Positions 3,660-46,813 of a stretch of DNA of 64,000 nt are shown here, one piece after another. The translations under genes and the position numbers were made by a program. The notes under the pieces were generated by a model, which was not told where the DNA came from, ran no database searches, and was given only the letters and a program-made list of their open reading frames with translations. Each line of letters begins with the position of its first letter. Position 1 is the first letter of the stretch. The DNA is from Candidatus Omnitrophota bacterium. GTDB lineage: Bacteria; Omnitrophota; Omnitrophia; Omnitrophales; Aquincolibacteriaceae. The stretch lies in contig CAIJHQ010000045.1 of NCBI GenBank assembly GCA_903820505.1, positions 79,625 to 143,624 of the forward strand, written 5' to 3'.

Positions 3660-3789
3660 GATGTCAACCCGCCCTATGCATTACGAGAGAAACAAAATAA
3701 GCTCCGAACACCGCCAAAACCCACAGAAACCAGAGCCCTTTGAGAACGGTTGCGATCAGCGAGGAGCGGTCAGGACTGGCCACGGTCCG

Positions 3790-5993: not shown

Positions 5994-5994
5994 C

Positions 5995-6876: not shown

Positions 6877-6936
6877 GACAGAACCCCACGAAGACGAGCA
6901 TGGAACCTAGCTGCCCGGCAAAATGAAGACCCTGAT

Positions 6937-10234: not shown

Positions 10235-11862
10235 GGAAAGGTGTGCTCGAAGTGGACTTCGCGTTTCTCGTTGAGCTCCCGGAGGACAGGACCCAGCGAG
10301 ACCCAAGGAAGCAGGTTCCCCTGCTGAAAAGGCTGGCTGGTAGCAATATAAATAAAGGTCGGGTCGGAACCGATCCAAAGGTCCTCGACCCGCACGGAAT
10401 CGTCGGTAAGCCGGATCGAATACTTGACCTTATCAAGCGAGCGCAGGGGGATCTCTTTCCGTATCGAGACCGGTACCCGTTTTAACCGTTTCGTGATCGC
10501 TTTTTTCTGCAGTAACGTCCGCACGAAATTCGCCGGCAGGAACCGTGCGATCAGGACAAGAAAAGCGCGGAACAAAAGAAAAGACCCGGGTTTGAAAACA
10601 AGGTCGCGGTGTTCGTAGCACCCCCCCTCGATCACAAGCGTGTCACCGCGGACTTCGTGCTTCCAATCCGCGACGACCTGCGATATGAATTTCTGTCTTT
10701 TGTCCGTCGCGCCGACAAAACCGCAATCGCTGAATTTAAGCGTTCCGTTCCGGAAGTACTTGGCCGTCCCGCCTTTCCTTGTCGAGATCACGGCGTAATT
10801 TTTATCATCGGATACGACATAAAGTCCGGCTTGTTCGAAGAATTTTTTCAGGACGCGTCCGCCATCCTTTGACCGGACCTCCCGCGGCTCAAAAAAATCC
10901 CCGTGGGCTTGCAGGAAATTATACGTGTAGTGAATGAATATGCGGTCGTCATCGATGCAAGAACGTGTTTTTTTCTGAAGAGACAGAAGAAAAGCGTCCG
11001 CGGTCGGAACGGCCCAAGGGCTCAGTCCCCCCATGATCTCAAAACCGTGCGGCATGAAATGGAAGGTATTACGGCTTCCGTATTCGCCGCCGAAACTTCC
11101 GTCGGGGTGCATAAAATATGAGGCGAATTCGATCGCCCTGCAAAGCGGTTCCACGACAGCGGGATCGGATGACTTTTGATAATACTTGGCGAGAAAATCA
11201 ATGGTGAACGTCAGGTATCCGGGATCGCAGCCCTCGTATTCCGGGAACCAGCCTTCCTCGGTCTGCAGGGCGAGCAGCTTTGCCAAGCAGGCTTCCGCCT
11301 TCTCTTTGAATGCGGGGTCATTCGTCAAAAGGAAAACGTTGTAAAGGCCCAGGACGATCAATGCCTTGTGATTGGATAGCACGCCCGACTCTTTAATACC
11401 TTCAGTCGCCAGATAATTGGCGCGGCGTTTAAAAAAATCGAGGAATCCCGCCGCATCGGACTTTGTGACCAGCAGCGCTTCCGTGCAGGCGTAGAGGGAG
11501 AACGCCGTGGCGCCGGCCGCGCGTTCGAACGGGAAATAATCATCACAGGAACCGTCGGGGTGGGACGAGTGGCGGGCAAAATCGATCCCGGCCATGACAG
11601 TTTCCTGGATGCGCGCGTTCCCGTAATACGGGTTCGCCGGGTGTTTCAGGGAAAACACAAGGGCAAGCGGCAGGACGGATTCCTGATACATCCCGCTCGG
11701 AAAATCACTGCACCGGTAATGCCAGAAACCACGGTCGAAGCAACCATAGGTCGAACTCAAGCGGTTCCTGTCCGCGAGCTCCAGCAATTTCGGGATGTAC
11801 TGGATACCTTCGTTAAAATATAGATCTTTCAGGCGGGTGTCTGTCATAGGTTTTTGGATCAT
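10231..11862 (-). CDS. Hypothetical protein of 543 aa, soluble, with no family assigned.
   Basis: Clean ORF with an ATG start and codon usage like its neighbours. It has two related motifs, HPDGSCDDYFP and HPDGSFGGEYG, which suggests an internal repeat or toroid-like fold. No signal peptide is obvious. Confidence 0.5.
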   Translation of the reverse strand: MIQKPMTDTRLKDLYFNEGIQYIPKLLELADRNRLSSTYGCFDRGFWHYRCSDFPSGMYQESVLPLALVFSLKHPANPYYGNARIQETVMAGIDFARHSSHPDGSCDDYFPFERAAGATAFSLYACTEALLVTKSDAAGFLDFFKRRANYLATEGIKESGVLSNHKALIVLGLYNVFLLTNDPAFKEKAEACLAKLLALQTEEGWFPEYEGCDPGYLTFTIDFLAKYYQKSSDPAVVEPLCRAIEFASYFMHPDGSFGGEYGSRNTFHFMPHGFEIMGGLSPWAVPTADAFLLSLQKKTRSCIDDDRIFIHYTYNFLQAHGDFFEPREVRSKDGGRVLKKFFEQAGLYVVSDDKNYAVISTRKGGTAKYFRNGTLKFSDCGFVGATDKRQKFISQVVADWKHEVRGDTLVIEGGCYEHRDLVFKPGSFLLFRAFLVLIARFLPANFVRTLLQKKAITKRLKRVPVSIRKEIPLRSLDKVKYSIRLTDDSVRVEDLWIGSDPTFIYIATSQPFQQGNLLPWVSLGPVLRELNEKREVHFEHTFP

Positions 11863-11871
11863 CGGGAAAGG

Positions 11872-12735
11872 TCAGGAACGGTTGTTATAAGCCACGATCA
11901 GATCACTGATAAGTCCGAGGGACGCGAGCATGATCGCCGTCATAAAAATGATGATGTCGGACTCTTGAAGAGTATGCGTGAATTTGAAACTGAGGAACGC
12001 CTTTAGGACACCAGTAACAGCGATCAGTCCTGCCGCCGGGATAAATACGCGCAATGGATTGAAATACATGACCATGCGAACAACGGTTTTCAAATAAGCC
12101 GCCGTGTCTTTGACGGGATGGAATTTCGATATTCCGATACGCGGGTGATAGGCCGTCGGAATATATTTTACGGCATAGCCGTTCGCCAGAAAGGCGAGCG
12201 TCATGGTCGTCACACAGGAAAATCCGTCCGGGAGGACCCAAAGGTATTTTTTCATGACGTCCTTCTTGAAGGCCTTGAGTCCGGTATTCAGATCGGGGAT
12301 GTCGGTACTCGTCAGGTAACAAGCCAGCTTGCGAATGAGCCATTTAGCAGGGGTCCGAAGCAGTTTCAAGGTACCCTGTTCGCTCGTGCGCGCACCGTTG
12401 ACCTGGTCGTATTCCGGGAAGTATTTAAGCAAATTGGGAATATCCGAGGCTTCGTATGAGCCGTCGGCATCCAGCATAACAATGACCTGTCCCTCGGCGC
12501 TCATGATCCCAGTGCGGCGGGAAGCGCCCGAACCTCTTGTAAGCGGCCGGCGCACGACCCGGACCCCCTTTGATTCGGCGATCGCGGCCGTGCAGTCCGA
12601 AGAATGGTCATCAACGACAAGGATCTCGTAGGCCTGCTTGCTGCCTTTCATCGCGGCCTGAACGTCATCGATCACCTTTGCGATGGCAGCCTCTTCATTA
12701 AACGCGGGAAGAACAATGCTGACTTCGGGCTTCAT
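11872..12735 (-). CDS. GT2 polyprenyl-phosphate sugar synthase with C-terminal TM helices (GtrB/CsbB-like).
   Basis: Contains VSIVLPAFNEE, VVDDHSSD and a DAD motif. A C-terminal ~70 aa region has two hydrophobic helices, as in GtrB-type undecaprenyl-P-glycosyl synthases. Confidence 0.8.
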   Translation of the reverse strand: MKPEVSIVLPAFNEEAAIAKVIDDVQAAMKGSKQAYEILVVDDHSSDCTAAIAESKGVRVVRRPLTRGSGASRRTGIMSAEGQVIVMLDADGSYEASDIPNLLKYFPEYDQVNGARTSEQGTLKLLRTPAKWLIRKLACYLTSTDIPDLNTGLKAFKKDVMKKYLWVLPDGFSCVTTMTLAFLANGYAVKYIPTAYHPRIGISKFHPVKDTAAYLKTVVRMVMYFNPLRVFIPAAGLIAVTGVLKAFLSFKFTHTLQESDIIIFMTAIMLASLGLISDLIVAYNNRS

Positions 12736-12919
12736 ATCCCCTTCCTTTTCTTAGGGTTACAAACGGGCTCATTCTATCAACTTTCCCTACAACTCACAAC
12801 CTCGACCTGGCATGCCCGGCACCGCTTCACTAACCCGGAACAACGACAACGGGAGGGCTGGAGAACCGAAGCAAGCATTGTCCCGGAAAATCGCCGCAAA
12901 GAAGCGGCGCTCGAGCGAA

Positions 12920-14665
12920 TTAAATTTTCTCCAGGCCAGGCTGTCCTAGCTTCCGGTCATAGGTGCCGCGGTAAAAAGTCCGTCCCGGATAAGCGGCCAT
13001 GAGCTCTCTATTACGATCACCGAGGTCGTGGGCGTAAAGGATCCGGCCGTCAAGAAACGGGCTGTTGCGAACGGCATCTTCTTCGGCCATGACCAGCTTG
13101 TCGCCAAGGAACCCGTGAATGAAAACAATGGCGGGCTGTTCCACCGTTCGTTCGGCCAGATCATAAAGAGCCCGGCGCTGGCGGCTGGCTTCCCCGGTGA
13201 ATTCTGCGTGCTTGATAAATAGTAGGCCCGAGCTCGCTATAGATGTCGCGACAAATACGAAGAGAAATTTACGCCCGCGGACACTGCATGTCTTCCACCG
13301 GGTCACGATCCAGTCAGCGACGGAAATACAGAGGAATGGCAACCCCTCCCACCAATAGCGGGGCCCCCACTGGTTCCCACCCCAGGAGTAGTAAAGAAAA
13401 TAGGCAAGAGCGAGAAAAACCATGGAAAAACGGAAAAACGCCTTAATGCGGTCCATTCCTTTAATCTTAGATAGCAAAAAAAGATAGGCGGCAACAAACG
13501 CCGGAGCAAACCAATCCATGAGATAAAAAACGCGGGCGATCAGATAGAAAAATCCGTCGACCGGCGTGTAATGCCCCCTCTTGAAACCAAGACGCTCCCA
13601 GGATTGGTAGTATTTGAGCGGAGTTTTGAACAGCTTCCCTGTAACTGCAATGTTTAGGAGGAACATAAGCGCTACAAAGGACCCGACGATCGCAACAAAA
13701 ACCATCTCGGCTTTACGGAGCTGAGGACGTTTGAATCTAAAGGGGATCCAACCAAAACGCTCACTGCCCGTTGTCGCGCCACCGGGGCTCTTCCGGTCGA
13801 AAAAAAGCGGGAGATAATGAGAGAGGAGGAATGGAACTGCGATCGCGAACATGGTAAGCGGCCGGGTTATCAAACCGTAGCCGACCCCAATCCCGCACAG
13901 GATCGCCCAGCCGACCGGATCCTTCCCCTGTCCATAGGCTTCATGCCAACGCAAGAAGGCATACAAAAAGACCGCTATCGTGAGCAGGCAGGTTGCATGG
14001 GAAAAATAAGCCGCGGCCGTGAACATGAAAAAAGGGCTTAGACACGTCATGATCAGCCCCAGAACGGCGGCGGGACGGCCAAACAACCGTTCCCCCGAAA
14101 GATATAAGAAAAAGACCGCCGTTGCCGCCATGACAGGATTGAGCCAATCCACGATGTTGAACCGGAGACCGAAAGCCCATATCAGAGGCCATCCGGGAGG
14201 ATAAACGCTGAACCACTTCCCTCCCTTCATCCCGACATGGACGACCTGGAAAAAATCCGCGAACTGCGGAATGGGGACAAAAAGCTTTCCCTTCCGGAGG
14301 CACTCCGCAAGAAAATAGCAGGAGTGCTCGTCACCGGAGCTGAGAAACGAATGGAGAACGTGCCGGTTGATCCAGTAGAGAACAAGAACTAAAAAGCCTA
14401 AGGCGAAGAAGCCGAGCGCAAATCCAAGAGCTTTTGACGGGCCACGGCTGGGATCCGTAATTTTTGACGAAAATAGAAAATCCGGAAGAAGATAGTAGCC
14501 CAGGAAGGCAACGAGGATCGTGACGCCCAGGAGCAGGATAGAGTCCGCGGTCATGAAAAGATTGCGTCCCCACACTTGCTGGACATGCGGGACCCATAAG
14601 GAGGCCGCGCAACAAAAAGACCCGAGAAGCAAAAGCCCAGTCTGTTTTAGATATCCCTTGCCCAT
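12920..14665 (-). CDS. GT-C glycosyltransferase, GT39/PMT_2-like.
   Basis: 581 aa polytopic protein. It has the loop-1 acidic motif SGDEHSCYFLAE and the segment NPVMAATAVFFLYLSGERLFG (ArnT/PMT_2 signature). A 184-bp gap separates it from the downstream GT2. Confidence 0.65.
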   Translation of the reverse strand: MGKGYLKQTGLLLLGSFCCAASLWVPHVQQVWGRNLFMTADSILLLGVTILVAFLGYYLLPDFLFSSKITDPSRGPSKALGFALGFFALGFLVLVLYWINRHVLHSFLSSGDEHSCYFLAECLRKGKLFVPIPQFADFFQVVHVGMKGGKWFSVYPPGWPLIWAFGLRFNIVDWLNPVMAATAVFFLYLSGERLFGRPAAVLGLIMTCLSPFFMFTAAAYFSHATCLLTIAVFLYAFLRWHEAYGQGKDPVGWAILCGIGVGYGLITRPLTMFAIAVPFLLSHYLPLFFDRKSPGGATTGSERFGWIPFRFKRPQLRKAEMVFVAIVGSFVALMFLLNIAVTGKLFKTPLKYYQSWERLGFKRGHYTPVDGFFYLIARVFYLMDWFAPAFVAAYLFLLSKIKGMDRIKAFFRFSMVFLALAYFLYYSWGGNQWGPRYWWEGLPFLCISVADWIVTRWKTCSVRGRKFLFVFVATSIASSGLLFIKHAEFTGEASRQRRALYDLAERTVEQPAIVFIHGFLGDKLVMAEEDAVRNSPFLDGRILYAHDLGDRNRELMAAYPGRTFYRGTYDRKLGQPGLEKI

Positions 14666-14683
14666 AGCCTCCGCAATCCCCTG

Positions 14684-15757
14684 TTATTCATTCTCCCGGA
14701 TCACGTTCGCTGCCAGAAGATTTCCCTGCGAGGTCCAGTGCCAATCATTCTTGATGTAATAAACTTCGAGACCGTCCTTTGCGACGGCATCATTGAATTC
14801 CGGCCTAAGGTTGATAAGATCGACCTTTTCACGATCCGCGAAACGCCGGATCGACCTCTCCAGGGAAGTTCTTCGCGTACTTTCCGCCCAATCCTTGGGA
14901 GGCAATAAAACCAAAATAGGGGTTGCCTGATCGCGCCGGACTTCCAGGATGAGCTTCTGAAGAATGGCCCGCCCGATCATCCATTCTTCCGACGTATCGG
15001 GATCGATAAGGCGCATGTTTTTGGCAAGTTTGATCAATGGTTTCTTGGCCACCCGGTAGAGGACGCTCCTGTTAAGAACTTTTTGAAGATCACTCTGCTC
15101 CAACAACGGGGGAAATTGATCCGTAGTCAAAGAAAAGGGCGGAGGGACGGGCACGTTGTGCAGAATCAGATCTCCCTTCTCGGAAAGTGAAAAGTAGGGT
15201 TTGACGTGCCCGGAATCAGCGAACGAACGCGTGCATCGCCAGAAAGCTTCGGGAAAAACACCTATCAGAACGATGTCGGGATGATATTGTTTCGCGATCT
15301 CCCGGTAAGAAAGATATATCTGGTCGATCCCGTATCCCGGCACCCCGAGATTCAGGACTTCCCGGTTTCCGCCGTCGGCCTCCAGAACGGCAGGAAAGGT
15401 TTCCTGATCCTGGACGCCGAATCCAAATACAAAGCTGTCGCCAAGCGCCGCGATGCGGATGACTCCGGCCGGCTTTTTGATGGCATATTCCCGGGTCCCG
15501 CGAAAACCGGCGGAATTCGTGTGAACGGTCACCGAGGGGAAATTCGGGGATTCCAGTACGGCGGTCTTATTCTTCTGGGAGTACCAGCCAAGGACCGGAT
15601 GATGCTCGACCCAGGAATTCTCAGGCACATTCACCCATCCCATCCGGGGCTTTTCAGGAAACTTGATCCGGTCGATCTTGACAACACGCAGAACAACCTC
15701 CGCGAGGGTTAACGCAAGCAACAGCGCCAAGATCGACACAAACAGGTTCTTTTTCAT
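14684..15757 (-). CDS. SGNH-fold protein with a DxHW motif (AlgX/AlgJ-like periplasmic O-acyltransferase or esterase), signal-anchored.
   Basis: Block I is GDSFVFGFGV. The C-terminus has IKNDWHWTSQGN, a D-x-H-W-T motif as in the AlgJ/AlgX family. The N-terminus is a hydrophobic anchor, MKKNLFVSILALLLALTLA. The start was moved to the internal ATG at 15757; the ORF track begins at 15835. Confidence 0.65.
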   Translation of the reverse strand: MKKNLFVSILALLLALTLAEVVLRVVKIDRIKFPEKPRMGWVNVPENSWVEHHPVLGWYSQKNKTAVLESPNFPSVTVHTNSAGFRGTREYAIKKPAGVIRIAALGDSFVFGFGVQDQETFPAVLEADGGNREVLNLGVPGYGIDQIYLSYREIAKQYHPDIVLIGVFPEAFWRCTRSFADSGHVKPYFSLSEKGDLILHNVPVPPPFSLTTDQFPPLLEQSDLQKVLNRSVLYRVAKKPLIKLAKNMRLIDPDTSEEWMIGRAILQKLILEVRRDQATPILVLLPPKDWAESTRRTSLERSIRRFADREKVDLINLRPEFNDAVAKDGLEVYYIKNDWHWTSQGNLLAANVIRENE

Positions 15758-15835
15758 GGGACCCTTCGATAGCTTTTGAAGTGCAAGGAATATCGCATTG
15801 CCGCATAGGCTATCAGAAATCGATACAGCCGACAA

Positions 15836-16603
15836 TTGACATTACGCATTAAAAACATTAATCTTTCCCCTATGAATGCCGCGACTTTTATCAGTTTCAT
15901 CACCCCGATCTACAACGAAGAGTTGAACATCGCCGGGATGCTCAGAAACTTCTTTGCCGTCCTGAACGCCCATCCGGAATGGAACTGGGAAGTGATCTTG
16001 ATCGAGGACGGAAGTAAGGACAAGACCCGCGCTGTCCTTCAGAAAGAGATGTCCCAATACCCCAACGCAAAGCTGATCATCCATGAAAAGAACCAAGGAT
16101 ATACCCGCTCCCTCAAAGACGGGATCGCAGCCTCTCGCGGTAAGTACCTGATGTACATCGGAGCGGATGAGGAGTTCGATTCGTCCGAGATCCCCGCCTT
16201 TGTTGATATCCTGAAAAAGAACGAGACAGATGTCCTGCTGGGTGTACGCTGGCAACGCAACGCCTACCAGCTTTTCCGTTTCTTCCTGTCCGTGATCTAC
16301 ATTTTCCTGCTCAATTACCTGTTCAAGATCCGCATCAACGATTACAACTGGTCGCAGGCCTGGAGCCGAAAACTTCTTGATCATATCGACCTGACCTCCG
16401 CTTCTCTTTTTATACTTCCCGAGATCATCATCAAGGCCCATGACCTGGGTTACCGCATCAAAGAGATCCCCTCGAACCACCGCGGCCGCCAAGCCGGAAA
16501 ATCGTCGGTCAACATGAAGATCATGGGATCGGCGCTTTGCGAGGGGCTGAGATTCTGGTTCTACCGAAGATCAAAAAAATACCGCCCGGCAAAAAATCCC
16601 TGA
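15836..16603 (+). CDS. GT2 glycosyltransferase (GT-A fold).
   Basis: This is the only plus-strand gene in block 1. Motifs: ISFITPIYNEE, ILIEDGSKD, GADEEF (DxD). It has two C-terminal hydrophobic stretches. By eye its GC content is lower than that of its neighbours. The start may instead be the internal ATG at ~15872. Confidence 0.75.
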   Translation: MTLRIKNINLSPMNAATFISFITPIYNEELNIAGMLRNFFAVLNAHPEWNWEVILIEDGSKDKTRAVLQKEMSQYPNAKLIIHEKNQGYTRSLKDGIAASRGKYLMYIGADEEFDSSEIPAFVDILKKNETDVLLGVRWQRNAYQLFRFFLSVIYIFLLNYLFKIRINDYNWSQAWSRKLLDHIDLTSASLFILPEIIIKAHDLGYRIKEIPSNHRGRQAGKSSVNMKIMGSALCEGLRFWFYRRSKKYRPAKNP

Positions 16604-16663: not shown

Positions 16664-18364
16664 TTATTTAAGCTTATAAACCGTGATCGTGTAACCGTTC
16701 CGTTCTCTCGCGCGGATATCTTTCCACAGGAACGGTCCCCCGGTAAGAGGCAAGGTGTCGTAATCCTTCATTCCAAAGGACTTGCGGTAAGGTGAAAATT
16801 TCACGACAGGATCCGCGACCTTTTCAAGCCCCGCCGCGAAGGGATCCTTTGGATCACGGGGTTCGCTAACCATAACAACATAATCCACTTTCTTCCGTCG
16901 CAGCGTCTCGAGATCAAACGGGACCTTAGGCTCCGCGAATAAAAATTGCGGCCCTGACGGATCACGACTCAGGAAATATAGCTCGTATGAAGGTTGCCGC
17001 GATCTTGACAACAGGGCTTCCAGGCGTCTTTTTTGGGCGCCCGCTTGGGCTCCATCCGTCCGGTCCAGACCGCCCATTTTTTCTTTTAACTGGTCGGAAG
17101 AAAACGAAAGCCGCGGCGTGAAAATGGTCCCCTCCAGCGCGATCCGGCTCCCCGGCGGAATGTGACTTTCGATCCATGCTCTCGCCACTGTACGCACGTC
17201 AGGAGATGCCATCAGTCGGTCCCATTGAACTATCTTCCAAAACGCGGGAATAACAAGGATCAGGATGATAATTCCTTTGAGGATCACGCCTAAGAAAACT
17301 TTTCCTTTAGACAATACGTCCATGTAGGGAATGAGAAAATCGACCGCAAAAATACAAACGAACGGGACCAGCGGTAGAACGTAGCGATCATAAGGTTGCC
17401 CCCATCTGCAAAGGACCATGTAGTATCCCAGAACAAAAATAGCCATCGCCTCCCGCGCGGGTTTTCCGGAAAAAACCGCCCGAAGCCAGCCCCCAAACGC
17501 CACCGTAAGCAATGAAGCTCCTACCGCGCCGGAAAGCGAATATTTTATGTGGTGGAACCACGGCACTCCCTGATTCGATCGGGATTGATCAGTAACTTCC
17601 CTGAATAACAACGGCCAGTCGAGGACCGAAAAGGGATTGCACAGGATAAATACGAGCCCGGCCGTCGCACCCGCGAAACCCCAAAAAACCGGCCATCGCC
17701 GCCACGGGACCGTACGCAAGCAGACCCAGAGATAAGGCAGCGCCAGGAACACGCCGTTGTATTTCGTCGCAGCTGCCAGACCGATCGTGCCGCCGCACAG
17801 CAAATGCAGCTTCCATGACGAGGGTGCGTCGCTCAGACGCGCCATCAAGCAAAAACCCGTCAAAAGGACGCAAAGAAGCGGGATGTCGGCATAGATATAG
17901 TGGGAATCACGGGCGTGCAGAAAATTGACCGCTAAAAGCAGCGCTGCCCAAAGGGCCATTTCCGTGGTCCACAACCGCTTGACCAACCGGTAGACCCCGT
18001 AGACCGTCGCGGTACCGAGAAGTACCCCGAAAATAACGCGGGCGATCAGATAAAAAGATGTCGGGTCGGAATAGAACAACTGTTCGAGATCCCGTACTGA
18101 ATGAAAATACCCGGCAGTTCTCCCCAGAACATAAAAGATCCCATAACAGAAGAAAAGAAGATAACTGACAAGCGGCGGTATCTTGAAAAAATGAGGGTTC
18201 AGATCGCCCGTTCCGTAGGCCAGGGCATGATTGACCACGATGGGTTCATCAGCGTGATAAAGCTCCGGGAGACCGAAATTGACCGCGAAAACGCGGACCA
18301 GGAACGCCAGGGCCAGGATCCCGAGCAACAACACTGTCTCGCGGGAGAGGCGAAGCGCTTTCAT
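16664..18364 (-). CDS. GT-C glycosyltransferase, GT39 (PMT_2/ArnT-like).
   Basis: 566 aa. Loop-1 has LPELYHADEP (conserved DE). It has ~11 TM helices followed by a periplasmic C-terminal domain. Its start overlaps the stop of the upstream GT2 by 1 nt. Confidence 0.75.
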   Translation of the reverse strand: MKALRLSRETVLLLGILALAFLVRVFAVNFGLPELYHADEPIVVNHALAYGTGDLNPHFFKIPPLVSYLLFFCYGIFYVLGRTAGYFHSVRDLEQLFYSDPTSFYLIARVIFGVLLGTATVYGVYRLVKRLWTTEMALWAALLLAVNFLHARDSHYIYADIPLLCVLLTGFCLMARLSDAPSSWKLHLLCGGTIGLAAATKYNGVFLALPYLWVCLRTVPWRRWPVFWGFAGATAGLVFILCNPFSVLDWPLLFREVTDQSRSNQGVPWFHHIKYSLSGAVGASLLTVAFGGWLRAVFSGKPAREAMAIFVLGYYMVLCRWGQPYDRYVLPLVPFVCIFAVDFLIPYMDVLSKGKVFLGVILKGIIILILVIPAFWKIVQWDRLMASPDVRTVARAWIESHIPPGSRIALEGTIFTPRLSFSSDQLKEKMGGLDRTDGAQAGAQKRRLEALLSRSRQPSYELYFLSRDPSGPQFLFAEPKVPFDLETLRRKKVDYVVMVSEPRDPKDPFAAGLEKVADPVVKFSPYRKSFGMKDYDTLPLTGGPFLWKDIRARERNGYTITVYKLK

Positions 18365-19071
18365 CAGGGATGCAGCCGTCGGATCTTCAGAACGTCCCGG
18401 AACATCCTCAGCGGATCGCTCAGGACCTGAACGCGGCTTTGGGCGGAATTCCGCCAGATCACCGGGAGCTCAAGCACACGGTAGCCGCGTTTTTGCGCCA
18501 GGTACACGATCTCGACGTCAAAACTGAACCCGTCGAGTTTCTGTTCCCCGAAAAGTTTATGGGCCGCTTCCCTGCGGAAACACTTGAACCCGCATTGGGA
18601 ATCCCGTACGCCTTTGAACGCCCAGCGCTGCGCGATAAGGTTAAAGACCTTTCCCATCGTTTCTCGGAGGAAGCCCTGGTGGATCTCGATCTGGGAATCC
18701 GGAAGCGCCCGTGAACCGATCGCGACGTCGCAATCTATCCGGAGATAATCAAGAAAACGGGAAACTTCAGTGATCGGCGTGGAAAGGTCCGCGTCCGTAA
18801 AAAGGATGTACTGTCCGGTCGCCGCGAGCATCCCCTGCCGTACGGCGTACCCTTTGCCGCGGTTCCGGGGAGTGGTCAGGATCTTGTGCGGGAAATCCAC
18901 GAGTTTTTCCTCAGCGATCGCGACCGTTCGGTCCCGGCTCCCGTCATCTGAAACAAGAACTTCGGAATCGTAGGATTGCTTCTTCAAAAAATCAAGGACC
19001 GCATCCAAAGTGTGCGGTAACCGTAAATCTTCATTGTAGGCCGGAATGACCACCGAAAGGTAAGGCGCCAT
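18364..19071 (-). CDS. GT2 polyprenyl-phosphate sugar synthase (DPM1/ArnC-like).
   Basis: Motifs: LSVVIPAYNE, VSDDGSRD, TDAD. 235 aa and soluble. Lies immediately downstream of the UDP-xylose synthase gene. Confidence 0.8.
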   Translation of the reverse strand: MAPYLSVVIPAYNEDLRLPHTLDAVLDFLKKQSYDSEVLVSDDGSRDRTVAIAEEKLVDFPHKILTTPRNRGKGYAVRQGMLAATGQYILFTDADLSTPITEVSRFLDYLRIDCDVAIGSRALPDSQIEIHQGFLRETMGKVFNLIAQRWAFKGVRDSQCGFKCFRREAAHKLFGEQKLDGFSFDVEIVYLAQKRGYRVLELPVIWRNSAQSRVQVLSDPLRMFRDVLKIRRLHP

Positions 19072-19073
19072 CC

Positions 19074-20021
19074 TTATCCCCCCATAACCTGTCTAAAATA
19101 GGCAACCGTCCGTTTTAATCCTTCGTCGAGCGCGATCTCAGGGCTCCAGGAAAGATATTTTCGGGCTCTGCTAATGTCCGGTCGCCGGACCCTGGGATCA
19201 TCCACCGGTAGCGGCTGATGCTCGATCACGCTGGAACTCCCGGTCATCTGAATGATCTTCTGCGCGAGATCCAGCATGGACATCTCGTCCGGGTTCCCGA
19301 TGTTGACGGGATCGTTCAGATCCGAGAACAGGAGCTTCTCGATGCCGTTGACCATATCATCGATGTAACAAAGACTGCGCGTCTGGGACCCGTCCCCAAA
19401 AACCGTCAATGGCCGGCCCGTCAGCGCCTGCGAAAAGAATGCCGGGATCGCGCGGCCGTCGTTCAAACGCATGCGCGGCCCATAGGTATTGAAAATGCGC
19501 ACGATCTTCGTATTCATTTTGTGGGTCCTGTGATACGCCATGGTCATCGCCTCGGCGTACCGTTTCGCCTCGTCATAAACGCCGCGGGGACCGATCGGGT
19601 TCACGTTCCCCCAATAATCCTCAGGTTGGGGATGCACCAGCGGATCCCCGTACACTTCCGAGGTCGACGCCAGAAGAAAAACAGCCTTTTTTTCTTTAGC
19701 CAAACCCAACGCATTGTGCGTCCCCAAAGCGCCGACTTTCAGCGTCTGGATAGGATATTGTAGATAATCCAGCGGGCTTGCCGGCGACGCAAAGTGGAGT
19801 ATATAGTCCACCGGCCCCGGGAAAGAAATGTGTTTGCTGACATCGTGACGGATCAGATGGAAAGACGCGTTTTTCTTGAAGGCTTCGATATTCTTTTCAT
19901 TGCCGGTCAAAAAGTTATCAACGGCGTAAACCTGAAATCCCCGATCCAAAAACCGGGCGCAAAGATGGGAGCCGAGAAAACCGCCGCCGCCCGTGACCAC
20001 GCACGTCTGTTGAGAAGTCAT
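19074..20021 (-). CDS. UDP-glucuronate decarboxylase (UDP-xylose synthase; ArnA C-terminal-domain-like SDR).
   Basis: Contains [18 protein letters not shown]...[12 protein letters not shown], a YDEAK catalytic motif, and [10 protein letters not shown]. The true start is the internal ATG at 20021, which overlaps the rmlD stop (ATGA). The ORF track extends to 20126. Confidence 0.85.
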
Positions 20022-20995
20022 CACGCGATGTTCTCCTTTTCCGCCGCTTGCGCCTTCGCTTTCTGTTCCTCCACTTCTTTCACTTCTTTCCAGCGCGGCA
20101 GGAATTCCTTCACGGCTTCGTCCCACGGTCTCAACTGCAGTCCGAGGACCTCCCGAGCCTTATCCAGCGAGAGAACGGAATTCAAGGGCCGTGGCGCCGG
20201 CCGCTTGAGTTGAGAGGTCGGAATGTCTTTCACTTTGATACCGTTCAGATTCTCCGATTTGAGTATGAATCGCGCGAAATCGGCCCAATGGACCGTCCCC
20301 TCGTTCCCGAGGTTGAAGATCTCGCGACTCCTGGCCTCAACGCATTCCCTTTTATCGCGCAGCACCGTGAGCAGCGACTGCGCCACATCCCAGGTATAGG
20401 TCGGACGGCCGACCTGGTCGTTCACGACGGAAAGCGTCTTCAATTCAGCGGCCTGCCGGAGGATCGCCTTCGGGAACGAGCGTCCCCAGACACCGTAAAG
20501 CCATGTAATACGGAAAATGATCGCCCGTTGCGCGTGCGCCAAAATATATCTTTCCGCATCAAGTTTCGTTTGCCCATAGAAATTGATAGGACACGGAACG
20601 TCCGTCTCCGTGTAGGGTTCCTTCTTCGACCCGTCAAAAACATAGTCCGTGCTGAAAAAAATAACGGGAATATCAAGCTCATTGCACACGTCCACCACGT
20701 TCTTCGTGGCGCCGACATTGAGCTCTTCGGCCTCGTCGTGATGGTCTTCGCAGTAATCCACGTCCGTCAGGGCGGCGGTGTGGATCACGACATGCGGCCG
20801 ATGGCTCAGAATGGCATCGCGTGTTTTTCGGGGCTGGGTCAGGTCACAAATGTCGTAAGGAACGCATAAATGCACTACAGGCCGTTTTTCAAGACCCCCA
20901 ACTTCGAAGTGCGGGTTCAGTACCGTGACGAGATCCGTTCCGAGCATCCCGCCCGCCCCCGTGATCAGGACTTTCCGGGCATCAGGGTTCGTCAT
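20021..20995 (-). CDS. rmlD: dTDP-4-dehydrorhamnose reductase.
   Basis: Begins [15 protein letters not shown] and is ~320 aa with an RmlD-type SDR fold. Start is the internal ATG at 20995, directly after the rmlB stop. Confidence 0.8.
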
Positions 20996-20997
20996 TG

Positions 20998-21975
20998 TTA
21001 TTTCACCGTGTACTTGTCTTTTTTGAGCGGCCGCCACCATGCCGGGTTCTCTTGATACCAGCGGATCGTCGCCTCCAGGCCCTTTTGAAAGCTCCAACGC
21101 GGTTTGAACCCCAGCTTCCGCAATTTATTAAAATTAAGGGCGTAGCGCAGATCATGCCCGAGGCGGTCCGGGACATAGCGGATCATCTCCTTGCCCTTTT
21201 TGAAACGTCTGAGAATGGAATGCGTCAGTTCCAAATTACTCATCTCGTTGTGAGCGCCGACATTATAGATCTCCCCCGTCCTGCCTTTTTCAAGGACCAG
21301 CAGAACGGCGCGGCAAGCATCCTCCACAAAGATCCAGTCCCGGCGATTCCTGCCGTTCCCGTAAAGCGGAACGGTCTGACCGGCCAACAGGTTGGTGACG
21401 AAAAGCGGGATGACCTTTTCGGGAAATTGGTACGGCCCGAAATTGTTCGTACAGCGGACGATCATGGCCGGATGTTTGAACGTTTCCTGGAACGAACGCA
21501 CCAGAAGATCGGCGGCTGCCTTGGAGGCCGCGTACGGGCTGTTCGGCAAAAGCCGCGCCCGCTCGTCCGCGAACCCTTTTGCGACCGATCCATAGACCTC
21601 ATCCGTGGACATATGGACGAACCGTTTGATCCCGCAGGCAAGCGAGGATTCCAGCAGGGACGCCGTGCCCAAAATGTTGGTACGGAGAAACTCGTCCGCG
21701 CTCTCGATCGAACGATCGACATGCGTTTCCGCTGCAAAGTGGGCCACCGCTGCGGCCCGCTTCATCAGGGCATGAACAAGTTTTTTGTCTTCAATGGCCC
21801 CGCGAACGAACTCATAACGGGACGAATTCGCATAGTCTCTTGTGTTAGCAAGATTCCCGGAATAGCTCAGCTTGTCCAGGTTCATCACGCCCCAGCCGGA
21901 ACGGTTTTTCAGGAAATAACGGATGAAATTCGAACCGATGAACCCGCAACCTCCGGTGACCAGCAAGCGCTTCAT
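20998..21975 (-). CDS. rmlB: dTDP-glucose 4,6-dehydratase.
   Basis: Begins MKRLLVTGGCGFIGSNFIRY and contains YAASKAAADLLVRS (YxxxK) and TDEVYG. The internal ATG at 21975 overlaps the rmlA stop (ATGA). Confidence 0.9.
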   Translation of the reverse strand: MKRLLVTGGCGFIGSNFIRYFLKNRSGWGVMNLDKLSYSGNLANTRDYANSSRYEFVRGAIEDKKLVHALMKRAAAVAHFAAETHVDRSIESADEFLRTNILGTASLLESSLACGIKRFVHMSTDEVYGSVAKGFADERARLLPNSPYAASKAAADLLVRSFQETFKHPAMIVRCTNNFGPYQFPEKVIPLFVTNLLAGQTVPLYGNGRNRRDWIFVEDACRAVLLVLEKGRTGEIYNVGAHNEMSNLELTHSILRRFKKGKEMIRYVPDRLGHDLRYALNFNKLRKLGFKPRWSFQKGLEATIRWYQENPAWWRPLKKDKYTVK

Positions 21976-22703
21976 GATCCGCTTCCGCCTGCGTGCCTGG
22001 CCACCAGATTGCCGGCTCGATGAAGGGATTCGAAAGTCCCGGCATCGGTCCAAAACCCTTTAAGAAAATCGAATTCCAGAACGCCCCGCTTGAGATACCA
22101 ATTGTTCACGTCCGTGATCTCGAGCTCCCCGCGGCGGGATGGCTTCAAGGTCCGGATAAAATTAAAAACTTCCGCATCATAGAGGTAGATCCCGACCACA
22201 GCGTAGGGGCTGTCCGGTTTTTTGGGTTTCTCGGTGATCCTGACGATCTTATCGCCGCGCAGGGCCGCGACACCGAAGCGCTCCGGATCCGGGACTTTCT
22301 TCAAAAGCAGACGCGCTCCTTCGGCCTGCCTCTCGAAATGACGCACCTGGGGCGAAATATCTTCCTGAATGATATTGTCGCCGAGGATCACGACCATTTT
22401 CTCGCCGTTCACGAAATGTTCCGCGAGGCTCAGGGCGTGAGCGATGCCCCCCTCGCCTTCCTGGTACGTGTAATTAATGTGCTTCAGGCCGAACTGCTTA
22501 CCGTTCCCGAGCAATTTCAGGAAATCCCCGGAAGAATTTCCGCCCGTCACCACCAGAATATCCCGGATCCCGGCCTTCACCAGGGTCTCGATCGGATAAT
22601 AGATCATAGGCTTGTTGTAAACCGGCAAGAGATGCTTGTTCGTAACTTTGGTCAGCGGAAAAAGCCGGCTGCCAAGACCTCCGGCGAGAATGACACCCTT
22701 CAT
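21972..22703 (-). CDS. rmlA: Glucose-1-phosphate thymidylyltransferase-like sugar nucleotidyltransferase (short form).
   Basis: Begins MKGVILAGGLGSRLFPLT (G-x-G-T-R-L motif) and contains ILGDNI. 243 aa. Its position upstream of rmlB and rmlD supports the call. Confidence 0.75.
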   Translation of the reverse strand: MKGVILAGGLGSRLFPLTKVTNKHLLPVYNKPMIYYPIETLVKAGIRDILVVTGGNSSGDFLKLLGNGKQFGLKHINYTYQEGEGGIAHALSLAEHFVNGEKMVVILGDNIIQEDISPQVRHFERQAEGARLLLKKVPDPERFGVAALRGDKIVRITEKPKKPDSPYAVVGIYLYDAEVFNFIRTLKPSRRGELEITDVNNWYLKRGVLEFDFLKGFWTDAGTFESLHRAGNLVARHAGGSGS

Positions 22704-22758
22704 AGATTCACCCTGTTGGTGGTGGAAACATCCTTGGTTTTAACGTTCCCGATTCCCG

Positions 22759-24054
22759 TCAAGCCGGCCGGCCGACACTGACGTAACGGAAACCGTTCGC
22801 TTTCATTTCAGTCGGCTGGAACATATTACGGCCGTCAAAAAAGAAGTTGGACCTCATGAGACGGCGCAAACGCTTCCAATCCAGGTTCAGAAACTCTTTC
22901 CATTCCGTAAGGACCGCGACCGCATGGGCCCCTTTGGCCGCCTGATAAGGATCATCCGTAAAGGTAACCTCCCTGAAAAGCGCCCGGCACTTCGCCGTTG
23001 CCTGGCAGTCATAAGCCTGGATCCGCGCGCCTTCCTTTTGAAGCATCTGAACGATCGGGATCGACGGCGCCGAACGCATGTCGTCGGTGTCCGGCTTGAA
23101 GACCAGCCCCAGGATCCCGAGCGTCTTTCCCTTGAGGTTCCGCATTTCGCTCAGGATCTTTCGGACAAAATATTCGCGCTGCGTGTCATTGACCCGAAGG
23201 ACATCGGCCAGGATATCGAACCGGACACCCAATTGTTCGGAAATATGCAGGAAAGCGCTCAGGTCCTTGGGAAAGCACGAACCGCCGAACCCGATCCCCG
23301 CCTTGAGGAACTGCGGGCCGATCCGGGGGTCCAATCCCATCCCCAAAGTGACTTTCTCGACATCCGCCCCAACGGCGTCGCAGACACGCGATAACGCGTT
23401 CGCAAAAGATATCTTGGTCGAGAGAAAGGAATTCGACGCGTGCTTGATCAGCTCCGCGCTTTTGATGTCCGTCGCGATGATGGGCGCCTTCAGAGAACCG
23501 TAAAGTTTCCGCAGAAGTTTCTCCGCGCGCGCGCTTGAGACGCCGATCACGATCCGGTCAGGCTGAAGGAAATCGTGGATCGCGGAACCTTCTCTCAGAA
23601 ACTCCGGATTGGACGCCACATCGAAGTGGACGCCGCTCCGGACGTTGCGCTTGATGGTGCGGCGGACCCATTCACCGGTCTCCACCGGCACCGTGCTTTT
23701 TTCCACTACCAAGCAGTATTTGCGCAGATGCGTGGCGATCTGTTTGGCGACCTTTTCCACGAACCTCAGATCCGCCCCGCCGTTGGCCCTCGAAGGCGTG
23801 TGCACGCAAATGAACAGGACTTCACAACGATTGACGATCCGCGTAATGTCATGGGTGAAAGAAAGTCTTTTGGCCGCGACGTTCTCCAGGACCATTTCCA
23901 TAAGCCCCGGTTCGTAGAACGGGACCTTACCGTTCTTGAGGGTGCGGACCTTTTCGACGTCCTGATCCACGCAGGTCACGATATGCCCCAGATGGGCTAG
24001 ACAAGCACCCGTCACGAGACCCACATAGCCCGAACCGATTATACCGATCTTCAC
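22759..24054 (-). CDS. ugd: UDP-glucose 6-dehydrogenase.
   Basis: Begins IGIIGSGYVGLVTGACLA (Rossmann). Catalytic Cys motif GFGGSCFPKD. 431 aa. GTG start. Confidence 0.9.
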   Translation of the reverse strand: MKIGIIGSGYVGLVTGACLAHLGHIVTCVDQDVEKVRTLKNGKVPFYEPGLMEMVLENVAAKRLSFTHDITRIVNRCEVLFICVHTPSRANGGADLRFVEKVAKQIATHLRKYCLVVEKSTVPVETGEWVRRTIKRNVRSGVHFDVASNPEFLREGSAIHDFLQPDRIVIGVSSARAEKLLRKLYGSLKAPIIATDIKSAELIKHASNSFLSTKISFANALSRVCDAVGADVEKVTLGMGLDPRIGPQFLKAGIGFGGSCFPKDLSAFLHISEQLGVRFDILADVLRVNDTQREYFVRKILSEMRNLKGKTLGILGLVFKPDTDDMRSAPSIPIVQMLQKEGARIQAYDCQATAKCRALFREVTFTDDPYQAAKGAHAVAVLTEWKEFLNLDWKRLRRLMRSNFFFDGRNMFQPTEMKANGFRYVSVGRPA

Positions 24055-24078: not shown

Positions 24079-26508
24079 CTATGTTTGCAGCGAGATCAAC
24101 TGGCTTTCCGCCGGGTTCATGAGACCGGTGGCGAATTCATTGGCTCCGGCCACTGTCTCGCCGATCCGCGGTTCCGAGAAGGAAGCCTTGCTGCCGTTTC
24201 GAAGCGCCAGGTCCGGGAACCCTTTCATCCGGAAATTGAAATAAAGCTGATTGTTATTGGAATCGATCAGCGAATTGCGGACGGTGTAACCGAACTCCAA
24301 AATGAAATCGTGCAGGTCCCTGGCCGCGGAGACCTGCCATTCCTGCAAACCATCGCCTCCCGTTTGCCAGCGGATGTAGCCTCCGACTTCCCACAGATGG
24401 TTGATCTGATAACGGGTATCAAAAACGAACTGCTCACTGCCCTCGATCCACTGGGCATCATACCAGTCATAATAATTATGGGTAAACCTCTGTCCGAAAA
24501 GAAAACGTAATTTTCCGCGCCGGATCATGATGTCCTGGTTCGCCACCTTCAGATAGTGATGAGCGAAATCATACTGGAGACGCGCCTGATACTGGAGCCA
24601 CTCGTAAGGCCGCAACGTCAGTTCCCCGCCGACGAACGTGAACCGGCTCCCCGAGATCGTCGGATCCAAAGGTTGCCCTTCATACTGCACGTAGGTATTG
24701 AGGCTTACGATATCGACCCGCTTCGTCCGTCCGCCGACCATGCGCTTGGTCTGAAGCCGGTTCTCCAGGCCCAGGGTGATGTTCTGGGTATCATCCAGCG
24801 CGTCCGCCGTATCGAAACGCGTCAGCCGGTCCATAGCAACGGTCGAGTAGGCCCCTTCGTACCGAACGCTCGGCTCGACAATATGCCGGAGCTGGTTGAC
24901 TTCAATCCCTAGTTTGTCGAATGAGACGTCATGCGTTTTATAAAAGTGCGTCCGGAGGTCCGCGCCGTATTCGAAAATATTGCGGTAAGTCGCGGAATTG
25001 GAATGCGCCTGATGGCTGTACTCGGTGCCGCGATAGCCGGCGAAGGGCGTCAGCTTGATCTCTTTCCACTTGAGAGGCAAATACCACCGGCTGTAGGCAT
25101 CCGTGCGGATCGAGTCCTGCTGCTCCGTACTGTGACTGTAAGTTTTATACAAATTATCGAACTGGACGCGGCTTTCGTTATAGACCCAGTCCTTGAGGAA
25201 CGGCTGGTTTTTCCAATCCAGACGCACTTCCGGCAACCGCTCGACGACCGATTCATAACTGTTCATCTTCTTTTCAAGAAAGACCATGGCACCATAACGT
25301 TCCGTATTGTGCGTTCCCGTCACGAATGAAAACGGCTGCATTTCGGCGCGATATTCCCTTTCAAAGAAATCCTGGAGAAAATATTCATCCGCCACGCGAT
25401 GGTAGCGCAGGATCACGTTGGTATTCTCTCCAAAATCCGAGCGGTGGCGCCAGGTGATCCGACCGCGGGTCCTGTCTTCACGTTTTGCGTAGGGATTGTC
25501 CTCATCGGAACCCACGTCCCTGTAACCCGGCGTCGGGGCTTCCTTATCCTGGGTCACATAAAGCTTCACGTTCCCGTGAGCATACTTTCCAAAATTATAA
25601 TACTGGTCCCACCCGCCACCGACACCGCGCTTGGCCCGCCAATCCAAATGGGCCTGGCCCCAAAGATACTTATTGAAAGCGATCCCCTTGGTAAGCTCGA
25701 TATAGCCCCCGAATTGTTTCGAATATCCCGGAGAGACCTGGAACGGAAGTGTCGGCATATCAAGCGGCACGGTAACGTAGGGCCACCAGAACACCGGCTT
25801 CCCGAGCACATAGATCGTCGCGTTGTACATGACCAGTTTCACGTTGGTATAGAGAGTGGCCTTCGTGCAACGAATCTCGTAATGCGGTTTATCATAACTG
25901 CAGGTAGTGACGCGACCCTTCTTGATCTTGTCGACACCTTCGCGAATCTGGTGAATCTCGGCACCCCGCGCGTACCACGTCCCTCCCATATCGCCCGGTT
26001 TCAGCCGCGGGTCCGGAGGCCCTTTTTGCGTCGTCAAAGCGCCGGGAGCGCTGATCGCGCGCGCGTTCGGAAAACTTCCCGTATGGTTCGAAAAATCGTA
26101 ATAAGCCTCTTCACCTTGAAGCCGCGGAGAGTCCCCCTCAAAGATCATGACGTGACCTTTGGCATAAGCCTTTTTGGTATCGGTCTCGACCTCCGCATAG
26201 TCCGCGAGCAATTTGGTCCGCTGGTAGGTGATGACCGCGTTGCCGCGGGCGATCATTTTTCCGGATTCCTTGTTGTACTCCAGGCTGTCGGCAACGGCCT
26301 CTACATTCGCCTGTTTTGCGTCATAGATCGTTTGAATGGGAAAATCACGCTTGGCAGGGGCGGAGGCCGCAGCGCCGGAAGCGGTTTTCTCCTCGGAGGA
26401 TTTGTCAGCAGCGAACACCGAGATCCCGGAAAGTAGAACAAGCGAGAGCAGGCCAACAAGGGGAACGATCACGGCCGCAGAGAATTTTGGATCAACCTTG
26501 CTTTTCAC
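24079..26508 (-). CDS. lptD: LPS-assembly outer-membrane protein LptD (OstA family).
   Basis: Has a signal peptide, an OstA-like N-terminal domain, a TTCSYDKPHYEI segment and a long beta-barrel region rich in aromatics. GTG start overlapping the stop of the upstream diguanylate cyclase (GTGA at 26505-26508). Confidence 0.7.
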   Translation of the reverse strand: MKSKVDPKFSAAVIVPLVGLLSLVLLSGISVFAADKSSEEKTASGAAASAPAKRDFPIQTIYDAKQANVEAVADSLEYNKESGKMIARGNAVITYQRTKLLADYAEVETDTKKAYAKGHVMIFEGDSPRLQGEEAYYDFSNHTGSFPNARAISAPGALTTQKGPPDPRLKPGDMGGTWYARGAEIHQIREGVDKIKKGRVTTCSYDKPHYEIRCTKATLYTNVKLVMYNATIYVLGKPVFWWPYVTVPLDMPTLPFQVSPGYSKQFGGYIELTKGIAFNKYLWGQAHLDWRAKRGVGGGWDQYYNFGKYAHGNVKLYVTQDKEAPTPGYRDVGSDEDNPYAKREDRTRGRITWRHRSDFGENTNVILRYHRVADEYFLQDFFEREYRAEMQPFSFVTGTHNTERYGAMVFLEKKMNSYESVVERLPEVRLDWKNQPFLKDWVYNESRVQFDNLYKTYSHSTEQQDSIRTDAYSRWYLPLKWKEIKLTPFAGYRGTEYSHQAHSNSATYRNIFEYGADLRTHFYKTHDVSFDKLGIEVNQLRHIVEPSVRYEGAYSTVAMDRLTRFDTADALDDTQNITLGLENRLQTKRMVGGRTKRVDIVSLNTYVQYEGQPLDPTISGSRFTFVGGELTLRPYEWLQYQARLQYDFAHHYLKVANQDIMIRRGKLRFLFGQRFTHNYYDWYDAQWIEGSEQFVFDTRYQINHLWEVGGYIRWQTGGDGLQEWQVSAARDLHDFILEFGYTVRNSLIDSNNNQLYFNFRMKGFPDLALRNGSKASFSEPRIGETVAGANEFATGLMNPAESQLISLQT

Positions 26509-42002: not shown

Positions 42003-42020
42003 AGGAACGCGGGATTTTCG

Positions 42021-42055
42021 CGACGCTTCAGCTCTTCGCGTCGTGGAATTTTTTT
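42021..42055 (+). terminator. Candidate intrinsic terminator for the DUF4136 gene. It overlaps the 3' end of the convergent ppk1 gene.
   Basis: Hairpin CGACGC-(11 nt)-GCGTCG followed by TGGAATTTTTTTGG on the plus strand. On the minus strand it reads as an A-run, so it terminates only plus-strand transcription. Confidence 0.35.
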
Positions 42056-44100: not shown

Positions 44101-44106
44101 AAGGTC

Positions 44107-46670: not shown

Positions 46671-46813
46671 ACCGCCTCCGCGAGAATCCGGACCCGAAAA
46701 AAGACCGGAGAAAATGAACGACAACCGGACCGGAACCAGTACCGTGTCTTATTAATTTTAAGGGTACACGGCATAGTACTGCGAACCCGTAAAATTTACT
46801 GTAACGCAGTCTA

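Follow-up and report, generated by a model that had tools for sequence, protein, structure and literature searches.

Which sugar does an uncultured diderm bacterium carry across its membrane on a lipid, and with which enzymes? The question is raised by a stretch of 64,000 nucleotides (contig CAIJHQ010000045.1, positions 79,625 to 143,624, called the window in this text) from Candidatus Omnitrophota, a widespread phylum with hardly any cultured member, whose cells are very small and may depend on hosts. Here, a row of minus-strand genes begins with that of an LptD-like outer-membrane protein and continues with ugd, rmlA, rmlB, rmlD, the gene of a UDP-xylose synthase (UXS), and those of a family 2 glycosyltransferase (GT2a) and a glycosyltransferase of the GT-C type (GTC1). 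A sequence-only reading of this DNA had likened the row to the Arn pathway, and had proposed that UDP-xylose, or the corresponding 4-keto pentose, is loaded onto polyprenyl phosphate and then moved to an envelope acceptor such as lipid A. Our answer has two parts of different strength. The locus most likely encodes a lipid-carrier-dependent module for extracytoplasmic glycosylation, of the three-component type, with which an envelope operon ends, and we are fairly confident that a GT2 loads polyprenyl phosphate, that the lipid-linked sugar is flipped, and that a GT-C enzyme transfers it outside the cytoplasm. That GT2a would make polyprenyl-phosphate-xylose from UDP-xylose is a tentative proposal, to which we give less than an even chance.

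Regarding the gene row itself, the earlier reading had the genes, their order and their strand right, with positions that agree or very nearly agree with ours (Table 1). From lptD to GTC1, the successive spacings are 24, 55, -4, -43, -4, 2 and -1 nt; hence only 2 nt separate the stop codon of UXS from the start of GT2a, and the stop of GT2a overlaps the start of GTC1 in the sequence ATGA, an arrangement from which GT2a and GTC1 appear to be translationally coupled. The open reading frame (ORF) of UXS extends over 19074-20126, with M36 as the real start. Terminator-like sites are not enriched in the window (23 observed versus 19.4 expected) and none lies between genes of the row, in agreement with the earlier remark that intervening terminators are not evident; a promoter scan of the window gave no enrichment either. 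The LptD-like gene stands at the head of the same operon in related loci too.

The nature of the decarboxylase is central, since enzymes of the UXS1 type release UDP-xylose whereas the C-terminal domain of ArnA releases the 4-keto pentose. The protein matches human UXS1 (2b69) with 344 bits (E 6.7e-102, ~50% identity over 309 columns), against only ~75-79 bits (E ~1e-20) for ArnA, and it reaches 76.8 bits with PRK11908, the model of bifunctional 4-keto-pentose/xylose synthases, whose cut-off is 294. Moreover, the motifs of extended short-chain dehydrogenases/reductases (SDRs), namely GxxGxxG, STSE (the catalytic S/T-x-E) and YDEAKR (YxxxK), all align with those of 2b69. By sequence, then, the decarboxylase is a stand-alone, true UDP-xylose synthase, as had been supposed, and its orthology predicts UDP-xylose as the product, the 4-keto intermediate being reduced and not released. 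The 4-keto pentose is accordingly rejected as the transferred sugar, because the enzyme is orthologous to the reducing UXS and not to ArnA; the UDP-xylose half of the earlier proposal keeps partial support from the gene neighborhoods described below.

GT2a is a short protein with the motifs DDGS, DAD and DSQCGFK. It has no hydrophobic segment or transmembrane (TM) helix, and therefore none of the C-terminal TM helices of the ArnC/GtrB type; in this architecture it resembles the soluble enzymes DPM1, Ppm1 and PpgS. Its sequence aligns with dolichyl-phosphate mannose synthase (DPMS) over residues 5-210, including DAD and the catalytic Asp of D-S-Q-C-G-F-K, and with the PpgS model over its full length (E 4.9e-16), although it passes no curated equivalog model and stays far below every cut-off. 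The AlphaFold2 model (pLDDT 90) adopts the GT-A fold, and the top 16 matches found with Foldseek in the PDB are ArnC, DPMS and GtrB, with TM-scores of 0.73-0.80 over ~230 columns, in full-length alignments that include the juxtamembrane helices. In addition, 35 homologs keep D93-A-D95, D157 and R121/R136 without exception, and these residues align with the motifs of DPMS and ArnC, the roles of the residues that bind undecaprenyl phosphate (Und-P) and of the catalytic ones being taken from GtrB (PMC12698845). The modelled fold and the motifs thus identify GT2a as an enzyme of the polyprenyl-phosphate glycosyltransferase type, and its description as DPM1/ArnC-like holds.

GTC1 has a multi-TM GT-C core, a C-terminal periplasmic domain, and an invariant Asp-Glu (DE) motif in the first extracytoplasmic loop. 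Its Pfam matches are PMT (E 6.6e-11) and PMT_2 (E 2.4e-10), it matches none of the ArnT family models, and its structural relatives ArnT, ALG12, STT3 and PMT are equally distant; the full-length architecture of a GT39 protein O-mannosyltransferase, with MIR domains, is not present. GTC1 is therefore a generic GT-C_A enzyme of the PMT/PMT_2 clan and not specifically ArnT or PMT, which retains the GT-C assignment of the earlier reading and drops the likeness to ArnT and GT39. Lipid A as the acceptor is likewise unsupported: nothing in the data points to it, no ArnT model is matched, and ArnT is one of several structural relatives at the same distance. Among GTC1 homologs with a named source, nearly all come from metagenome-assembled genomes of Omnitrophota.

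Taken together, these proteins would act in five steps. Ugd would oxidize UDP-glucose to UDP-glucuronic acid (UDP-GlcA), which UXS would decarboxylate to UDP-xylose. GT2a, membrane-peripheral at the cytoplasmic face, would then transfer the sugar of a UDP-sugar, in the favored case UDP-xylose, to polyprenyl phosphate, giving polyprenyl-P-xylopyranose. The lipid-linked sugar would be flipped, likely by a protein encoded farther along in the same island that resembles the flippase of MprF, and GTC1, by means of the Asp-Glu of its first loop, would pass the sugar on to an acceptor at the periplasmic face. Of this scheme, the enzyme identities, folds and motifs, the operon structure and the conserved synteny are observed; the donor sugar, the flippase and the acceptor are inferred. 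Synthase, candidate flippase and GT-C occur together here, as in three-component systems: to the coupled GT2a/GTC1 pair is added the gene of the predicted flippase, 6.4 kb downstream of GTC1. In one related locus (L018; related loci are cited by number), GT2a, a flippase-like gene (952-1893) and GTC1 are even contiguous with overlapping frames, which is the textbook three-component layout.

The preference for xylose comes from comparative synteny in a sample of 80 related loci, the counts of UXS and GT2a positions being restricted to loci whose upstream sequence extends over 3.5 kb or more. GT2a adjoins GTC1 in 35 of the 37 loci in which GTC1 is at least 38% identical to that of the window, but in just 8 of the 19 loci with lower identity. 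UXS lies upstream of the pair in 34 of these 37 orthologous Omnitrophota loci, namely in all 11 with a GTC1 identity of at least 50%, where it is always directly beside GT2a, and in 23 of the 26 with an identity of 38-49%. It is the most constantly retained gene of nucleotide-sugar synthesis, and UXS with ugd is the common denominator of the operons. The clearest cases are two minimal operons (L036 and L040) that read lptD-ugd-UXS-GT2a-GTC1-GTC2-U792-GTC4-methyltransferase-GTC3, with no rml genes, a single GT2 and no further Leloir glycosyltransferase, so that UXS and ugd are kept beside the pair even without other sugar genes, which speaks for xylose. Downstream of this single GT2, L040 encodes five GT-C-type proteins (four of the PMT_2 type and the YfhO-like U792), of which the last in order is truncated by the end of the locus.

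Several observations weigh against xylose as the sugar loaded by GT2a. UXS is found upstream in only 5 of 19 loci with a GTC1 identity below 38%, and L042 and L045 have no sugar-nucleotide genes at all within 7 kb, UXS included. In 13 of the 26 mid-distance loci, a gmd-rmd cassette for GDP-D-rhamnose stands between UXS and GT2a, the direct neighbor of GT2a being the Rmd-type reductase that follows gmd. The window itself encodes four GT2s of the lipid-carrier type and five GT-C-type proteins (GTC1-GTC4 and the YfhO-like U792) in ~25 kb (Table 1); position alone therefore cannot assign the donor, and any of the other three GT2s could equally be the user of UDP-xylose. Beyond the sampled loci, 80 more distant GT2 relatives from metagenomes, with 37-53% identity, share the D(T/S)QCGFK motif with GT2a, and UXS is a neighbor in only 1 of 43 loci with at least 5 kb of context, that one resembling the Omnitrophota operon; the other contexts are heterogeneous. 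Compared with this wider family, the Omnitrophota clade stands out only at F152, Q193, S209 and H234, with no obvious remodelling of the pocket, and H234 does so only because the out-group sequences stop short of its column. Furthermore, GT2a falls in the ALG5-like subfamily, that of the dolichyl-phosphate-glucose (Dol-P-glucose) synthases. Finally, a plasmid search of cultured bacteria placed UXS genes of Rhizobium, Azospirillum and Sinorhizobium in ordinary clusters for O antigen or exopolysaccharide or in uxs-uxe clusters, without relatives of GT2a or GTC1 (an example from Azospirillum reads rfbCBDA-UXS). Since UXS there adjoins rml genes and serves cytoplasmic transferases, the Omnitrophota operon could be a general unit of nucleotide-sugar supply.

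As the wider family lacks a link to UXS, UDP-glucose stays a serious rival donor. GT2a would then be a polyprenyl-P-glucose synthase working on housekeeping UDP-glucose, like ALG5 and GtrB, and GTC1 would glucosylate an envelope acceptor, while ugd, UXS and the rml genes feed transferases elsewhere. In agreement with this, the pipelines of JGI and NCBI name GT2a homologs dolichyl-phosphate beta-glucosyltransferase, the motif D(S/T)QCGFK is not peculiar to enzymes near UXS, ordinary O-antigen clusters also have UXS next to rml genes, and the characterized three-component systems mostly draw on a housekeeping UDP-sugar whose genes are not in the vicinity (Gtr systems; discussed in PMC11127046). 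The pipeline names are, however, automatic and only predicted. Moreover, UXS and ugd stay beside the pair where all other sugar genes are gone (L036 and L040), and UDP-xylose needs a transferase, while the genes called in the 64 kb contain no other Leloir-type glycosyltransferase domain (Pfam), nor is there one in the 17.6 kb of L040. The paper on GtrB offered no usable residue in contact with glucose C6 from which the donor of GT2a might be read. We regard a glucose-loading GT2a as possible but probably not the case.

A further set of explanations holds that GT2a takes its sugar from a different donor (GDP-D-rhamnose, dTDP-rhamnose, UDP-GlcNAc or GDP-mannose), or that it is a conventional Leloir GT2 extending a lipid-PP-linked or other acceptor, with GTC1 acting independently. 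The 13 loci with gmd-rmd directly upstream of GT2a lend it some weight, and small soluble GT2s can elongate glycans; the rhamnosyltransferase WbbL, for instance, is a small soluble GT2 engaged in ordinary glycan elongation. Nevertheless, no residue consistently distinguishes the GT2a orthologs that neighbor UXS from those that neighbor gmd-rmd, and both have identical conserved motifs, so a shared donor is expected, and the window does without gmd-rmd, which is thus not essential for that donor. In addition, the best structural matches of GT2a are all polyprenyl-phosphate glycosyltransferases, over the full length and with the juxtamembrane helices, and the coupling of GT2a and GTC1, together with their adjacency in nearly all orthologous loci, disagrees with independent action. 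This makes the whole set unlikely. The loading of glucuronic acid or an epimer from the product of Ugd is more unlikely still, its attractions being the conserved ugd, the hint of a lipopolysaccharide link in lptD at the operon head, and the analogy to RgtE, which makes dodecaprenyl-P-galacturonic acid for the GT-Cs (RgtA-D) that modify rhizobial lipid A and core, whereas UXS, placed between ugd and GT2a, would consume UDP-GlcA, ugd in the clade of the window is four genes upstream of GT2a with UXS nearest or second nearest, and a UDP-GlcA 4-epimerase is missing from the window, TviC-like epimerases occurring only in some relatives.

The SDR that intervenes between UXS and GT2a in the mid-distance loci was also considered as a UDP-xylose 4-epimerase and rejected, as it matches the GDP-6-deoxy-D-lyxo-4-hexulose reductase Rmd (2pk3, E 1.8e-38) and follows gmd. 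In L016-L026, L034 and L043 (e.g., L020, 2075-7276), the sugar block before GT2a is larger and comprises a TviB-like dehydrogenase, a TviC-like epimerase, UXS, gmd and the Rmd-type reductase, from which sugars of the UDP-GalNAcA type and GDP-D-rhamnose are to be expected in the envelopes of these relatives. In L045, a GT-C with a C-terminal TPR array (TMTC-like; 5083-7101) is directly upstream of the GT2a/GTC1 pair.

The island that continues beyond GTC1 gives the module its wider setting. The properties of its genes, together with those of the row discussed so far, are collected in Table 1.

Table 1. Genes of the envelope operon and of the adjoining glycosyltransferase island, in window coordinates.
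Feature	Coordinates	Strand	Length (aa)	Matches and remarks
GAF-GGDEF gene	27869-29314	-	481	
GGDEF gene	26505-27887	-	460	
LptD-like outer-membrane protein	24079..26508	-	809	PF04453 E 1.5e-11; first envelope gene of the row
ugd, UDP-glucose 6-dehydrogenase	22759..24054	-	431	all three UDPG_MGDP_dh domains; TIGR03026 458.6 bits (cut-off 189.8); TuaD model E 1.6e-156
rmlA, glucose-1-phosphate thymidylyltransferase, short form	21972..22703	-	243	PF00483 E 2.4e-57; TIGR01207 E 1.2e-73, below the model's cut-off
rmlB, dTDP-glucose 4,6-dehydratase	20998..21975	-	325	TIGR01181 420.8 bits (cut-off 365.1)
rmlD, dTDP-4-dehydrorhamnose reductase	20021..21040	-	339 as called	TIGR01214 254.7 bits (cut-off 224)
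UXS, UDP-glucuronate decarboxylase/UDP-xylose synthase	19074..20024	-	316	human UXS1 (2b69) match
GT2a, soluble polyprenyl-phosphate glycosyltransferase-type GT2	18364..19071	-	235	PF00535 E 1.9e-30
GTC1, glycosyltransferase of GT-C_A fold	16664..18364	-	566	C-terminal periplasmic alpha/beta domain
GT2b, soluble GT2	15872..16603	+	243	PF00535; no TM helix
SGNH/GDSL-type esterase or acyltransferase	14684..15757	-	357	N-terminal hydrophobic segment; PF13472; LA_2490 family E 4.9e-16
GTC2, PMT_2-type GT-C	12920..14665	-	581	multi-TM; PF13231; LA_3751/3752 family E 5.6e-13
GT2c, AglJ/GtrB-like GT2	11872..12735	-	287	TIGR04182 E 2.5e-35; two C-terminal TM segments, 228-250 and 258-283
U543	10231..11862	-	543	no Pfam or NCBIfam match; one hydrophobic segment near residue 430
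Flippase-like membrane protein	9293..10234	-	313	PF03706 (LPG_synthase_TM); TIGR00374 E 1.7e-23
U792	6937..9315	-	792	multi-TM; no Pfam or NCBIfam match of its own
SAM-dependent methyltransferase	5995..6876	-	293	Methyltransf_23/11/25
GTC3, PMT_2-like GT-C	4512..5993	-	493	multi-TM; PF13231, weak
GT2d, polyprenyl-P-type soluble GT2	3790..4509	-	239	PF00535; PpgS model E 5.2e-14; no TM helix
GTC4, PMT_2-type GT-C	1878..3659	-	593	multi-TM; PF13231

The island spans 1878-16603 of the window. Few genes of the neighborhood are as conserved as GT2b, with 63-83% identity across loci and a position almost always just after GTC1. The flippase-like protein, which resembles the MprF flippase, is our candidate for the flipping of polyprenyl-P-sugars; its gene is part of an order GT2c-U543-flippase-like-U792 that recurs in L008, L029 and L041, and in L026 without a detected U792. 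The assignment of U792 proceeds through a protein of L045, to which it is 32% identical (tblastn) and which itself hits YfhO (PF09586, 1.2e-19); U792 is thus probably a YfhO-type GT-C. No conventional Leloir glycosyltransferase gene of family GT4 or GT1 occurs near the island, which suggests that lipid-monophosphate sugars are the main building blocks of an envelope glycan, and the presence of several GT2/GT-C modules suggests its stepwise periplasmic assembly or decoration rather than a single modification of lipid A. The multi-GT-C island is probably more interesting than the question of xylose. A picture of the whole would be that, in Omnitrophota, an ALG5-like soluble GT2 makes polyprenyl-P-xylopyranose from UDP-xylose, and that the clustered GT-Cs use it to build or decorate a xylose-containing glycan of the periplasm or outer envelope, with the MprF-type flippase-like protein, the SGNH enzyme and the methyltransferase as accessories; in this full form the picture is speculative, and we would not expect it to be right in every element.

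Concerning the rest of the operon, the set rmlA-rmlB-rmlD is not accompanied by rmlC, for which tblastn with the Azospirillum RfbC query found no match in the window or in the 80 related loci; either the genome has rmlC at another place, or another dTDP-6-deoxyhexose is the end product of the pathway. At the other end, two genes of diguanylate cyclases (GAF-GGDEF and GGDEF, 26505-29314) immediately precede lptD on its strand, as also in L040, L070 and L071, which hints at control of the envelope operon by c-di-GMP. Farther away, the window holds a minus-strand polyphosphate cluster (ppk1, ppx/GppA, a ROK kinase gene and ppk2; ~42000-47700), adjoined by a PFK gene and a NUDIX gene (~39.3-41.2 kb).

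If the proposal on xylose is true, polyprenyl-P-xylopyranose would be added to the short list of donors for extracytoplasmic glycosylation, as the first neutral pentopyranose donor on a lipid carrier to be made from a nucleotide sugar in bacteria, and by a route that differs from that of the pentofuranose donors, derived from phosphoribosyl pyrophosphate (PRPP), that were described in 2024. If the proposal on the island is true, an envelope polymer of a diderm phylum would be assembled entirely from lipid-monophosphate sugars. In any case, the locus is a first handle on the envelope glycobiology of Omnitrophota, and the place of a GT2/GT-C island in the gene row of lptD, conserved across the phylum, points to a major structure of the cell surface. 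Whatever its sugar, the GT2a/GTC1 pair lends itself to heterologous expression, being short, well modelled and apparently coupled in translation.

How, then, does the locus compare with known systems? The nearest in appearance is the Arn pathway (Ugd, ArnA, ArnB, ArnC, ArnD, ArnE/F and ArnT), which places 4-amino-4-deoxy-L-arabinose (L-Ara4N) on lipid A. Both start from UDP-GlcA made by Ugd, both use an SDR decarboxylase to obtain a UDP-pentose, and GT2a has the fold with which ArnC loads polyprenyl phosphate (Foldseek TM-score 0.75-0.79). However, the locus has a stand-alone UXS that yields UDP-xylose in place of the C-terminal domain of ArnA with its 4-keto pentose, GT2a lacks the TM helices of ArnC, and GTC1 matches no ArnT model, being as distant from ArnT as from ALG12, STT3 and PMT. 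In addition, the candidate flippase is of the MprF kind, whereas the Arn pathway relies on ArnE/F. As had been claimed, neither a DegT/ArnB-type aminotransferase nor a formyltransferase was found by Pfam in the called genes and larger ORFs of the 64 kb (the small ORFs at ~55.9-57.5 kb were left unscanned), and the Pfam lists and scans of the window likewise contain no ArnD deformylase. The system does not belong to the Arn pathway.

Closer to GT2a alone are the Dol-P-glucose synthase ALG5 and the enzymes DPM1, Ppm1 and PpgS, which are likewise short, soluble GT-A enzymes with DAD and D(S/T)QCGFK; GT2a differs in scoring below their curated cut-offs and in the genomic association that it has with ugd and UXS in Omnitrophota. 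The non-lipid GT2 xylosyltransferase of Xanthomonas pisi, encoded beside a UDP-apiose/xylose synthase, belongs to a different GT2 subfamily (PMC6193724).

At the level of the island, the assembly of arabinan and mannan in mycobacteria offers a parallel, as one or a few synthases of lipid-P-sugars feed several clustered GT-Cs there, much as in L040, and a polyprenyl-P-pentose is among the donors. In these bacteria, decaprenyl-P-arabinose or polyprenyl-P-mannose supplies many GT-Cs, and decaprenyl-P-methylthioxylose (Dec-P-methylthioxylose) capping is carried out by Rv0539 and Rv0541c. On the other hand, the phyla are different, the Omnitrophota envelope being diderm with LptD, the donor proposed here comes from a UDP-sugar instead of PRPP or a methylthio-pentose, and the GT-Cs of the island do not resemble the Emb or Aft enzymes in sequence.

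The known polyprenyl-P-pentose donors are Und-P-Ara4N, decaprenyl-P-arabinose, Und-P-ribofuranose, Und-P-xylofuranose and Dec-P-methylthioxylose (PMC11127046). This list shows that the earlier statement that such a route is not established was too broad for pentose donors in general; it stands for the xylopyranose donor derived from UDP-xylose, as our literature search found no report of a polyprenyl-, undecaprenyl- or dolichyl-P-xylopyranose made from UDP-xylose by a GT2. The pentofuranose systems of Kelly et al. (2024) consist of a polyprenyl phosphoribose synthase, a MATE flippase and a GT-C of family GT136 (PMC11127046). Their xylose donor is a furanose that is obtained from PRPP via Und-P-ribofuranose and an epimerase, whereas the one proposed here would be a pyranose made from UDP-xylose by a GT2. 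With respect to three-component systems as a whole (GtrA, GtrB and a Gtr-type GT-C, or the pentofuranose sets), GT2a has no TM helix, the flippase belongs to a different family, and several GT2 and GT-C genes are clustered at the locus, in contrast to the single set that modifies the O antigen in the known cases. The logic they have in common with the Omnitrophota locus is that a lipid-P-monosaccharide is made in the cytoplasm, flipped, and then used by a GT-C enzyme.

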